From contig JANQLF010000278.1 in the NCBI GenBank assembly GCA_028280785.1, positions 2,671-66,670 on the forward strand: 64,000 nt of DNA, written 5' to 3'. Source of the DNA: Planctomycetota bacterium (GTDB lineage: Bacteria > Planctomycetota > UBA11346). How positions within the stretch are numbered: position 1 is the first letter of the stretch; each line of letters opens with the position of its first letter. A program made the translations under genes and the position numbers. The notes below the pieces were generated by a model. It was given only the letters and a program-made list of their open reading frames with translations. It had not been told where the DNA came from and did not search any database. Positions 1,021 through 39,249 of the stretch are shown here, in pieces.

Positions 1021-1050
1021 CTAATGGTTAGCTAATGGTAATCTAATCGG
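1017..1050. repeat. Short tandem repeat (11-12 nt unit, about 3 copies)
   Basis: ttagctaatgg (1017-1027) and ttagctaatgg (1028-1038) are followed by a degenerate taatctaatcgg (1039-1050). The repeat sits next to the family-2 repeat and overlaps the stop of the 85-aa gene. Confidence 0.7.
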
Positions 1051-1300
1051 TAATTATCACTTCCACCTGCGCTTCGTGCTGCCAGCCGCCCTTATAAATA
1101 AATTGCAAACCGTGAACAAAGAAGTCGGGTTGTTCACTACTTAAATGGATATCTTCCGTATTGCCATCCCACTCCATTTCCAAATGCACATGCATTAAGG
1201 GCGAATGCTCTTCCGCTTCTTTTATCGAACAACAACGCACGCGTTTATGCTGTCCTATTGGATGCCATTCCTTGGGTTTAAGGCTCAATGATAGTTTCAT
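1043..1300 (-). CDS. Small hypothetical protein (85 aa), shares its 14-aa N-terminus with the upstream gene
   Basis: Its ATG (1300) overlaps the TGA of the upstream ORF (ATGA). The N-terminus MKLSLSLKPKEWHP is identical to that of ORF 1297-1485. I recognise no family. Confidence 0.55.
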   Translation of the reverse strand: MKLSLSLKPKEWHPIGQHKRVRCCSIKEAEEHSPLMHVHLEMEWDGNTEDIHLSSEQPDFFVHGLQFIYKGGWQHEAQVEVIITD

Positions 1301-1485
1301 TTTAGAATTTCCGTTAACACACGGCGAATTCTCGAGTCGGCGAACGCCGATGAGTGGTCTGAGCTACATGCGAAGAATTTTGCAAAGCAAAATAACAAAG
1401 ACAAAGTGAGCGAGGGGCTTGGGGATGTAATCCCCAAAGCAACAGGATGCCACTCTTTTGGCTTCAGGCTCAAGGATAATTTCAT
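1297..1485 (-). CDS. Small hypothetical protein (62 aa), Ser/Thr/Cys-rich after a shared 14-aa N-terminus
   Basis: It has ATGA overlaps at both ends (1482-1485 and 1297-1300). Its first 14 codons encode the same peptide as the next gene but differ at 8 synonymous positions, which argues for translation. Confidence 0.5.
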   Translation of the reverse strand: MKLSLSLKPKEWHPVALGITSPSPSLTLSLLFCFAKFFACSSDHSSAFADSRIRRVLTEILK

Positions 1486-1745
1486 TCCGGTTTCGTTTCT
1501 TCTTCTTTTTTCAAAATACCAACCATTAACACCCCAAGCCCCAGCGCAAATAGGGGTAATGCAAAGAGGCGTGTCGTTTCCATAGAAGCATCTGTGTCTT
1601 CTTGTAAACGTTTTTGATTAATTTCACCAGAGAGATTATATTCTTCCATGCCTTTCGTCATCATTAAATACGTTGGGATAATGCCGGTTAGAAACGCCGC
1701 GGTGAGAATCACTATGCCGCCATTAATCAAGTGTGTCCGTTTCAC
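1482..1745 (-). CDS. Small membrane protein (two predicted TM helices)
   Basis: Hydrophobic segments are INGGIVILTAAFLTGIIPTYLMM and LFALPLFALGLGVLMVGIL. A GTG at 1745 gives a GTGA overlap with the upstream stop, so it is preferred over the track ATG at 1823, which would overlap the upstream gene by 82 nt. Confidence 0.5.
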   Translation of the reverse strand: MKRTHLINGGIVILTAAFLTGIIPTYLMMTKGMEEYNLSGEINQKRLQEDTDASMETTRLFALPLFALGLGVLMVGILKKEEETKPE

Positions 1746-2047
1746 AGTGTACCCTCTTCGTAATAACCGCGCATCGGTGTGCCATTGTCCGCACAAATTA
1801 AAATACCGGCGCAATTTCCACAACGAATTTTACAGTGCACGTACTGGGCCTGAAATTTATCAAGCTGAGCTTTTTCTTCTTTACTCACGTAGCCCAAAAA
1901 TTCATAGAGCGCTTCATCGAGTGGGCTATCACAGAGGACGCAGTTATAGCTATCGATGTGCTTGGTCAGTTGCTTGCGCTTCAACCAAATCCGCACTACC
2001 CAGGCCAAAAACCCCGTCGCTAGCAGAATCAGAACAAGATAACCCAT
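1742..2047 (-). CDS. Membrane-anchored Cys-rich (zinc-ribbon-like) small protein
   Basis: It has an N-terminal TM helix (YLVLILLATGFLAWVVRIW) followed by CVLC...CKIRCGNCAGILIC cysteine pairs. It is the first gene of a four-gene overlapping operon. Confidence 0.55.
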   Translation of the reverse strand: MGYLVLILLATGFLAWVVRIWLKRKQLTKHIDSYNCVLCDSPLDEALYEFLGYVSKEEKAQLDKFQAQYVHCKIRCGNCAGILICADNGTPMRGYYEEGTL

Positions 2048-2125: not shown

Positions 2126-3445
2126 ATGCCCACCCCGGAGATGCAGATGCAAGACTATGGCATTGGCTTACTTGGTTGGGGCACCGTCGGCGGCGGTATC
2201 CTCGACATCCTGAGCCAGGAAGGTGGACACCTTTCTCGTCGTAGTGGTTTTGACTTCAATTTGCATCGCATCGTCACGGCCAATCCAGACCGCAAGCGTG
2301 ATCAAGATCAAATGGGTGCCGAATTGAGTTCGAGCATCGATGACATGGTCAATGACGACCGCGTTCAATGTGTCCTGCATATGGTTGGCGGCACCGACGT
2401 AGCCAAGGACATGGCCATAGCTTGTCTCGAAGCAGGCAAGCACGTGGTCACCGCCAACAAAGCTCTGTTGGCTGAACACTGGGACGAACTCTTCGAAGTT
2501 GCAGCGACCAACCAAACCTGTCTGGCTTTTGAAGCGGCGGTTGCTGGAGGCATCCCAGCCATTCTCGGTTTGCGCGACGGCTTAATTGCTAATCGTATTC
2601 AAGGTGTCAAAGGCATCTTAAACGGGACCTGCAATTATATTTTAACCCAGATGGAAGAGCGCGGTCTTTCCTACGACGATGCACTTGGCCAAGCACAAGA
2701 ACTCGGTTACGCCGAAGCGGATCCAACGCTCGACGTCGATGGTACCGACACCGCGCATAAATTAGCTATTCTTGCCCGCATTGCTTATAATGGTCGGATT
2801 AATTTTGATGACATCGCCATCGAAGGCATCCAAGCCATTACCGCTGGTGATATTGCTTCAGCCAAGCGCATGGGCGCACGGATTAAATTATTAGGCGTTG
2901 CTGATCGCCAAGAAAAGGGTTTAGAATTACACGTCGCACCAACCTTGGTTCCGATCGAACACGAACTCGCTGCGGTACGCATGAATTATAATGCGGTTTT
3001 AATTGATGGTCACGCCGCCGGTCCAAATTTACAAGTTGGTCAAGGTGCTGGTGCGTTGCCAACTGCCAGCGCGGTGCTTTCTGATTTAGTCAGCATTGCC
3101 AGTGGCGCTTACGGAAAAATCAGCGGGCACTTTGGTTATTTTCATACCACGAAAAAAGTGCCGTTACTTGCTGAAGCTGACGAACGCACTGGTTCGTATG
3201 GCCGCTTCAATGTTAAAGACGAACCAGGTGTCTTAGCTGCGATTACCAACACGCTCAGTGAATTTAATATTAATATTTTATCAGTGAATCAGGAAGTCTT
3301 CGCCAAAGATAATCGCGCCACGGTTGAGGTCATTACCCACCCGAGCATGACTGGCGACTTTTTAAAGGCGATCGAAAAAATTGACGGGTTTGATTTTACC
3401 GTCGAGCCAACGGTGATTTTACGCCGCATGTTTGAAAAAGCTTAG
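2126..3445 (+). CDS. hom: Homoserine dehydrogenase
   Basis: The N-terminal GLLGWGTVGGG is a Rossmann motif. The central GILNGTCNYILT and AEADPTLDVDGTDTAHKLAILA are hallmark Homoserine_dh motifs. The C-terminus is ACT-like. Confidence 0.95.
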   Translation: MPTPEMQMQDYGIGLLGWGTVGGGILDILSQEGGHLSRRSGFDFNLHRIVTANPDRKRDQDQMGAELSSSIDDMVNDDRVQCVLHMVGGTDVAKDMAIACLEAGKHVVTANKALLAEHWDELFEVAATNQTCLAFEAAVAGGIPAILGLRDGLIANRIQGVKGILNGTCNYILTQMEERGLSYDDALGQAQELGYAEADPTLDVDGTDTAHKLAILARIAYNGRINFDDIAIEGIQAITAGDIASAKRMGARIKLLGVADRQEKGLELHVAPTLVPIEHELAAVRMNYNAVLIDGHAAGPNLQVGQGAGALPTASAVLSDLVSIASGAYGKISGHFGYFHTTKKVPLLAEADERTGSYGRFNVKDEPGVLAAITNTLSEFNINILSVNQEVFAKDNRATVEVITHPSMTGDFLKAIEKIDGFDFTVEPTVILRRMFEKA

Positions 3446-15251: not shown

Positions 15252-15504
15252 ACGATCTTCCTTGTTGCTTTTCAGGAACGACGCTAAACAGCGTCAGAGA
15301 GGAGTTTTGGATTAGTTCAAAAGGGCGCCCAAGCTACTTCCACTCCAATACTCGTCAATTGTCTCGGGGGCCTTGCCCCCAAACCCCCGCTCTCTTTGTC
15401 ATTGCTAATTTTCTACGAAAATTTCCTCGCAGGTAGCTCGGACCACTCTTCGGCGATCGCAGGCTCGAGAACTCGCCGCTCTTAACGTCGTAATCTTTAA
15501 GATT

Positions 15505-38731: not shown

Positions 38732-38847
38732 AATAGTCTATCCGTGGTCCAAATTTGACCACATGTTCTTATAAAATTACTAAATTAACGCGATAACAAC
38801 GCTTTTATGCAGGTCACCCAATTTAAACAACGAGAGTCGAAAAATAA

Positions 38848-38885
38848 AAAGGTGCCGCTTGAAGCGACACCTTTGACTTTTTGTT
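38848..38885. terminator. Probable bidirectional rho-independent terminator
   Basis: In aaaggtgccgct-tga-agcgacaccttt, the stem pairs at 8 of 9 positions, extended by A/T pairs. T-runs follow on both strands (tttgactttttgtttt on plus, tttttatttttc on minus). Confidence 0.55.
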
Positions 38886-39048
38886 TTGGGGGTTACATCC
38901 CCGAGCCCCCCGCTTACTTTGTACGGTCAAGCCGCATCGAGATCTTCTCTATTTTTGTCCGTTTTACTCCCAAAAATTATGGCCAAGTGGGCCATACCGT
39001 TCATCGGCGCTCGCCGCTGCGAGAACGCAGCGTGAGTACCGGCATTAT

Positions 39049-39249
39049 TTATGATGCTACTTTGAGTACCTCGTAGCAAACGCGTGCGGGTGAAATATCT
39101 TTAAAGTTCACGCGCATGCGATTCTGGTACATCCAGTCTACGACGCGCCAGGCGTCGGATTCGTTACTGCTTGGATGGAAATCTTCGTCTACAGTGCCTA
39201 ATACGATCTTGGAAACACAACGGTCGATGTCTTCGGTATTCATAATCAA
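39049..39249 (-). CDS. Small hypothetical protein (66 aa) downstream of the anti-sigma gene
   Basis: The ORF has the SD-like aggaaggattg upstream (seen as caatccttcct on the plus strand at 39247-39257). I recognise no family. Confidence 0.4.
   Translation of the reverse strand: MIMNTEDIDRCVSKIVLGTVDEDFHPSSNESDAWRVVDWMYQNRMRVNFKDISPARVCYEVLKVAS

Follow-up and report, generated by a model that had tools for sequence, protein, structure and literature searches.

A probable chimeric reading frame within a conserved pair of small genes in a Planctomycetota genome

A 64,000-nt stretch of Planctomycetota DNA (assembly GCA_028280785.1, contig JANQLF010000278.1, positions 2,671 to 66,670; referred to here as the window) carries on its minus strand a chain of four small open reading frames (ORFs), A101, B87, C62 and D85, encoding 101, 87, 62 and 85 amino acids (aa), respectively. 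Each is linked to the next by a 4-nt overlap of start and stop (GTGA at 1742-1745, ATGA at 1482-1485 and ATGA at 1297-1300), as described in a first-pass annotation of this DNA whose coordinates were all reproduced here, and the last two, C62 and D85, begin with the same 14 residues. Our analysis suggests that the conserved unit at this locus is a two-gene module of A and D, and that the shared residues are D's own conserved N-terminus. C62, in turn, is probably a lineage-specific chimeric ORF rather than an independent gene family, composed of a leftover D start fused to an inserted repeat, and may serve only to carry ribosomes over the inserted DNA by translational coupling.

The first 14 codons of C62 and D85 (here tag1 and tag2, Table 1) both encode MKLSLSLKPKEWHP and differ at 8 of 42 nt, with one first-position change in a leucine codon (tta/cta) and seven third-position changes, all of them synonymous. 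When 8 random substitutions were simulated in codons 2-14, the peptide was left intact in at most 1 of 100,000 trials, and a chance origin of the synonymous-only pattern was rejected (p<1e-5); the N-terminal identity pointed out in the first-pass annotation thus stands far above chance. As ~7.8 synonymous sites carry 8 differences, the two tags are saturated (proportion of synonymous differences, pS, ~1.0; of non-synonymous differences, pN, 0), and their DNA is no more alike than two independent back-translations of one peptide. Outside the tags, identity is at random level, both in the 60 nt upstream (22%) and in the 78 nt downstream (23%), which rules out the larger duplication that the first-pass annotation had raised as an objection to its own proposal. 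No third copy of the tag was found in the 64-kb window, none in GTDB species genomes and none in viral contigs, and a scan of JGI metagenome contigs with degenerate DNA for KPKEWHP gave 5 matches, at chance level only. The periodic, synonymous-only divergence shows that it was the peptide, not the RNA, on which selection acted, in line with the earlier view. It follows that the spare 14 codons are translated or were so in the recent past.

Four D loci are known, in the window and in loci L001, L089 and L091, and the family is single-copy in the relatives. The orthologue in L001 (P0002; Logan SRR16995659) is 81% identical to D85 and syntenic with the response-regulator gene, the homologues in L089 and L091 are 52-54% identical, and conservation at 52-81% identity includes the body of the protein. 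Between D85 and its L001 orthologue the non-synonymous divergence (dN) is 0.15 at a saturated pS of 0.86, and the orthologous tags differ at 2 of 14 residues. The N-termini of the homologues read MILELSLKPKEWHP (P0002), MKINLSLKSKEWHP (L089) and MNINLLMKQREWHP (L091), and the family consensus is M-x-[LI]-x-L-[SL]-[LM]-K-x-[KR]-E-W-H-P-[LI]-G-x-H-x-R-x-R-C. Conservation extends beyond P14, with G16, H18, R20, R22 and C23 invariant in D and all five absent in C62. C62 shares only residues 1-14, so the common piece is cut arbitrarily from a longer motif and does not make up a module. The CC pair that had been highlighted in D85 is not conserved as a pair, although C23 on its own is. The AlphaFold model of D85 was unusable (predicted local distance difference test, pLDDT, 38).

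Comparison with the relatives places C62 outside the conserved arrangement. D follows A directly in L089, with an ATGA overlap, and in L091, with a TGATG overlap, and neither locus has B87 or C62 between the two genes. In the window, 445 nt (1301-1745) lie between A and D, made up of B87, the second copy of D's first 14 codons and ~135 nt of repeat. L090 and L091 carry the same divergent homoserine dehydrogenase gene (hom) as the window, and the order hom-A-D is seen in L090. As A is directly followed by D in the relatives, A and D form the conserved unit, and the 445-nt stretch with B87 and C62 is a lineage-specific insert. The first-pass annotation had allowed that homologous loci without the 62-aa ORF would speak against its proposal, and such loci were found: L089 and L091 lack C62, and L001 shows no conservation upstream of D. 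In L001 the 107 nt upstream of D bear no similarity to C62 or to the repeat, a null result which, with synonymous divergence between window and L001 saturated, argues only against a constrained C62 or a constrained repeat. Within positions 1-110 of L001, the ATG of D shares nucleotides with the TGA of a preceding ORF of at least 36 open codons, which is unlike A, B87, C62 and the repeat; it thus seems that sequence immediately upstream of D is replaced rapidly, with the stop-start overlap retained.

The body of C62 does not resemble a gene. Searches among 5.8 billion proteins gave no homologue of C62, and its own sequence was absent too, with D85 and B87 of the same NCBI contig present; C62 is not called as a gene in the record, unlike these two neighbours. 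With 34 long ORFs of the window as the training set of a codon model and 303 held-out 48-codon gene segments as controls, the C62 body scored -0.24, which is below 303 of the 303 true-gene segments and inside the off-frame distribution, and its dicodon score was below 99.3% of the held-out segments. In their own frames A101, B87 and D85 have gene-like scores, that of D85 being positive. A frameshifted D paralogue was considered as the source of the body and rejected, as no similarity was seen in any frame. The Ser/Thr/Cys-rich composition noted earlier is correct for this body, but the DNA is derived from a repeat.

The repeat occurs three times in the 64 kb of the window, with two of the three copies intergenic and only one, copy 1, within an ORF. 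A three-way alignment placed the homology from approximately C62 codon 15 to ~9 nt before D85's ATG, with the tag excluded, and in copies 2 and 3 the frame equivalent to C62 has neither a tag nor an ATG. No coding signal was found across the six frames, in which pN/pS between copies ranged from 0.63 to 1.66 (0.78, 1.11 and 0.97 in the C62 frame). Stop codons are few in the orientation read in C62: each frame has 0-2 of them in every copy. A proposed consensus structure is 94% paired and has 8 compensatory pairs, a number reached by 2 of 500 shuffles, and slid controls gave 0-2. The + strand of copy 1 folds with z = -3.4 and the opposite strand only slightly worse, so that any strand preference for + is weak. 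Rfam 15 gave no match at the gathering threshold in the whole window, and chance-level matches only, to copies 1 and 2, at an E-value threshold. [quoted passage not shown] With copies at multiple unrelated, mostly intergenic sites and predicted conserved hairpins, the repeat nonetheless appears to belong with elements of the repetitive extragenic palindromic (REP) or MITE-like type.

Further features of the repeat were observed. Over its ~125-165 nt it contains the palindrome CGGCGAnCGCCG, and a -10-like TAGAAT lies just upstream of copies 1 and 2; this repeat may represent a family of small RNAs or of REP-like elements. A small ORF precedes copy 3, which lies downstream of it and is convergent with thrS; a clean hairpin and T-run terminator follows the copy. 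An 89-aa plus-strand ORF (38807-39076) covers copy 3 in a frame different from that of C62; it is almost certainly not a gene and illustrates how easily long ORFs arise in a stop-poor repeat.

Two Logan contigs from the same organism (SRR20820735) are interrupted within the best-conserved core of the repeat, L008 ending at 1348 and L002 starting at 1368; such breaks are to be expected if other parts of the genome contain additional copies of higher similarity. Taken by themselves these breaks could also point to an assembly artefact, in which two alleles or loci were joined through the repeat. This we regard as highly improbable: the tag1-repeat and repeat-tag2 junctions are each 100% identical in those independent contigs, and the order hom-A...D-response regulator in the window agrees with L090 (hom-A-D) and L001 (D-response regulator).

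The nature of the C62 body also bears on the proposal of the first-pass annotation that a conserved tag with divergent bodies marks a precursor-peptide or bacteriocin family, or a targeting tag. Under this model C62 and D85 would be precursors of ribosomally synthesized and post-translationally modified peptides (RiPPs), bacteriocin precursors or cargo proteins with the same leader or targeting tag, as a common N-terminus under peptide-level selection and a Ser-, Thr- and Cys-rich C62 body might have suggested. The model is already contradicted, and we give it almost no credence. The tag, with just two copies in the 64 kb, turns out to be the N-terminus of one conserved family, and it is no discrete leader, as the shared stretch stops at P14 inside a motif conserved to C23; the body of D is conserved across species instead of being hypervariable, that of C62 is non-coding repeat, and the relatives have a single D directly after A. 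The neighbourhood of the ORF chain contains no modification, transport or immunity genes, in agreement with the earlier remark that no known modification enzyme is present.

What the C62 frame might do at present is suggested by the start of D. This start overlaps an upstream stop codon in all four loci, namely that of A in L089 and L091, of another ORF in L001 and of C62 in the window; the overlap is ATGA in the window, L001 and L089, and TGATG in L091. A Shine-Dalgarno (SD) motif precedes D in none of the four, and ~40% of the window's long genes have one. Because D lacks an SD motif and starts on an upstream stop at every locus, it is presumably made by termination-reinitiation. Coupling of this kind depends on -4 or -1 nt overlaps, and gaps of ~20 nt leave almost none of it (PMC10666635; PMC6728339), and overlap-coupled pairs are enriched among subunits of one complex (PMC6728339; PMC10666635). 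Repeat elements are able to fuse in frame to host ORFs (PMC10969869). A repeat alone would separate D from its upstream gene. The frame from the spare start happens to remain open through the repeat up to the TGA in D85's ATGA, giving the apparent 62-aa ORF. With C62 starting on B87's stop and ending on D's start, ribosomes would be carried over the 143-nt insert and D would stay translated. We infer that such bridging is the present role of the C62 frame, if it has any.

C62 could instead be an inert relic, with the spare start and the repeat left behind by a rearrangement, the frame open by chance and D85 initiating by itself. An open frame costs little in a stop-poor orientation, any ORF in the C62 frame must end at D's ATGA, and the body is non-coding in appearance. 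However, self-initiation sits poorly with the missing SD motif and the stop-start overlap of D in four of four loci, the 185-nt start-to-start spacing would abolish coupling if no bridging ORF were present (PMC10666635), and zero non-synonymous changes in tag1 would require a very recent loss of constraint. An inert relic is accordingly a decidedly unlikely reading of C62.

The bridging frame leaves the history of tag1 to be accounted for. For most of their history the spare 14 codons were translated under purifying selection, most likely as the start of a second complete D gene (a paralogue or a foreign allele) that later lost its body to the repeat. We favour this former D copy, once functional and with its body recently replaced, over a 14-residue peptide that is still selected, because the breakpoint falls inside a longer conserved motif, the tail has a non-coding character and the relatives lack C62. 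Several points weigh against the bridging chimera and its suggested history. Bridging, or selection on the initiation region, acts on nucleotides or on the openness of the frame, and would not keep 14 residues while synonymous sites drifted. The 14/14 identity of tag1 and tag2 is somewhat unexpected for a relic, with a chance that we roughly estimate at 5-15%, and the open frame through the repeat is weak evidence given the stop-poor orientation. In addition, D is known from only four loci, and L001 shows just 107 nt upstream of it.

The same identity of the tags is what would be expected if C62 were a young functional micro-protein, with D's 14-residue motif on a repeat-derived tail, acting for example as a decoy or competitor for a binder of the D N-terminus. 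Among orthologous D tags whose synonymous saturation is comparable, 2-3 of the 14 residues have changed, against none between tag1 and tag2, and the exact start and stop overlaps of C62 would also suit a gene. Its tail contains a moderately hydrophobic stretch, which could be taken in the same sense, although the Kyte-Doolittle 19-residue maximum of 1.33 is under the usual transmembrane threshold. A functional micro-protein is, however, difficult to reconcile with a shared stretch that ends in the middle of D's motif and so is no natural module, with a tail whose codon usage is non-coding and which comes from a repeat devoid of coding signal, with the absence of C62 in L089 and L091 and of conservation upstream of D in L001, and with the failure to find any homologue among the proteins searched; we consider it unlikely. 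In a variant that we likewise hold to be doubtful, the co-translated A would be a possible binding partner and C62 would modulate an A-D membrane complex under peptide-level selection; in parallel, the repeat may be a new structured small-RNA family with one copy antisense inside the operon. The bridging chimera with a former D copy remains our preferred reading of C62.

Table 1. Coordinates of the features discussed, as positions within the window
Feature	Positions	Strand	Description
A101	1742-2047	minus	101-aa ORF; N-terminal transmembrane helix and cytoplasmic Cys4 (CxxC...CxxC) domain
B87	1482-1745	minus	GTG start; two hydrophobic segments; lineage-specific ORFan, within the A-D insert
C62	1297-1485	minus	probable chimeric ORF, tag1 plus read-through of the repeat; terminates at the TGA within D85's ATGA
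D85	1043-1300	minus	genuine conserved small gene
tag1	1444-1485	minus	spare copy of D's first 14 codons
tag2	1259-1300	minus	D85's own first 14 codons
Homoserine dehydrogenase gene (hom)	2126-3445	plus	divergent from A101; synteny anchor; Pfam families assigned
Repeat copy 1	1309-1443	+ strand folds better	forms C62 codons 15-62; blastn and nhmmer matches to copies 2 and 3
Repeat copy 2	15366-15487	minus	nhmmer E 1.7e-17; intergenic, between dnaN and a pyruvate phosphate dikinase-like gene
Repeat copy 3	38880-39044	minus	nhmmer E 3.5e-12; ~31-nt internal insertion

None of the four ORF products matched Pfam, NCBIfam or PADLOC. A101 belongs to a family with 19 representatives at E<=1e-3 among 1.84 billion proteins, all of ~100 aa and each with an N-terminal hydrophobic helix. 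Seven residues are invariant in the 19 sequences (C36, C39, D63, Q66, C76, C79 and G89), and the two invariant CxxC pairs, C36/C39 and C76/C79, are consistent with a Cys4 domain of zinc-ribbon type. The AlphaFold2 (AF2) model of A101 has a pLDDT of 93; no fold match (best E 2.3) and no significant sequence match were found in the PDB. The description of A101 as a membrane-anchored Cys4 zinc-ribbon-like protein has thus held up, with a family of 19 representatives, four invariant cysteines and a confident model behind it. More distant members of the A family occur without D. The A family is often found beside amino-acid-metabolism genes with ACT or dehydrogenase domains (loci including L089, L090/L091, L092, L093 and L094); neighbours include hom in the window and in L090, an upstream 2-hydroxyacid dehydrogenase gene in L094, 12 nt away, and, in the JGI contig of P0009, a gene for an ACT-domain protein. 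B87 had itself as its sole match among the 5.8 billion proteins and is absent between A and D in L089 and L091; its codon and dicodon scores are gene-like in its own frame, and an SD-like GAGGG precedes its GTG start.

The genes neighbouring the chain are hom, NUDIX, SBP_bac_3, a response regulator with a histidine kinase, and a fatty-acid desaturase. A promoter and terminator scan of positions 700-2300 returned signals no better than those of shuffles. D85 and the response-regulator gene converge, and the zone between their ends (909-1052) contains an inverted repeat of 31 nt (909-939 / 994-1024, 81% complementary) as well as a cluster of TAGCTAA-type palindromes at 1011-1052; it may be a bidirectional terminator. 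A 90-aa minus-strand ORF at 739-1011 overlaps the regulator gene and looks spurious. Synteny based on hom revealed no close relatives in GTDB genomes: among 185,579 GTDB species representatives the best identity to the window's homoserine dehydrogenase was 44-46%, with the best matches scattered across many phyla, and the window seems to derive from a poorly sampled lineage.

These observations alter no major open question. They carry a caution, in that synonymous-only divergence, a textbook sign of selection on protein, was found here on an ORF of which the other three quarters are non-coding repeat; a signal of this kind can certify a fragment and not the gene. If the bridging is real, a coupled gene pair would tolerate an insertion by means of a spare start that carries ribosomes across. 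The analysis also brought to light an uncharacterised conserved A-D module, composed of a membrane-anchored Cys4 protein and a partner of ~85 aa, together with a confidently folded A101 domain that has no PDB match and a dispersed structured repeat that has no Rfam match.

Partial gene duplicates are reportedly left in Escherichia coli where e14 or phage 21 integrates, the 3' end of icd being duplicated and the displaced gene end remaining at the integration site. Those cases resemble the present locus in having a short partial copy of a gene end beside the intact gene, with mostly synonymous differences, which arise there because both copies evolved inside functional genes. They are unlike it in that no integrase or large element is present here, a 135-nt repeat lies between the copies and it is the 5' end that is duplicated. 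RiPP and bacteriocin precursor families share with the window two adjacent small ORFs with a common N-terminal peptide; however, the locus lacks the multiple paralogues, the hypervariable core, the modifying enzyme or transporter and the leader boundary of such families, and one of the supposed cores is non-coding repeat.

Rickettsia palindromic elements and intragenic copies of ERIC, BOX and MITE elements (PMC10969869) are comparable in that a dispersed, palindrome-rich repeat of ~135-165 nt has become part of an ORF and would be translated as a tail. In contrast to those fusions, the repeat described here has no terminal inverted repeats or target-site duplications, follows a 14-codon spare start instead of lying inside an intact host protein, and is found within an ORF in one of its three copies. 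A further comparison is with termination-reinitiation coupling at ATGA or TGATG (PMC6728339; PMC10666635). The link in the window differs in that it appears to be a non-conserved, repeat-derived ORF, with coupling predicted from the sequence. The likeness lies in the -4/-1 nt overlaps, present at all junctions of the chain and, in four of four loci, where D starts, with D lacking an SD motif, and such pairs are typical of the subunits of one complex, here A and D.

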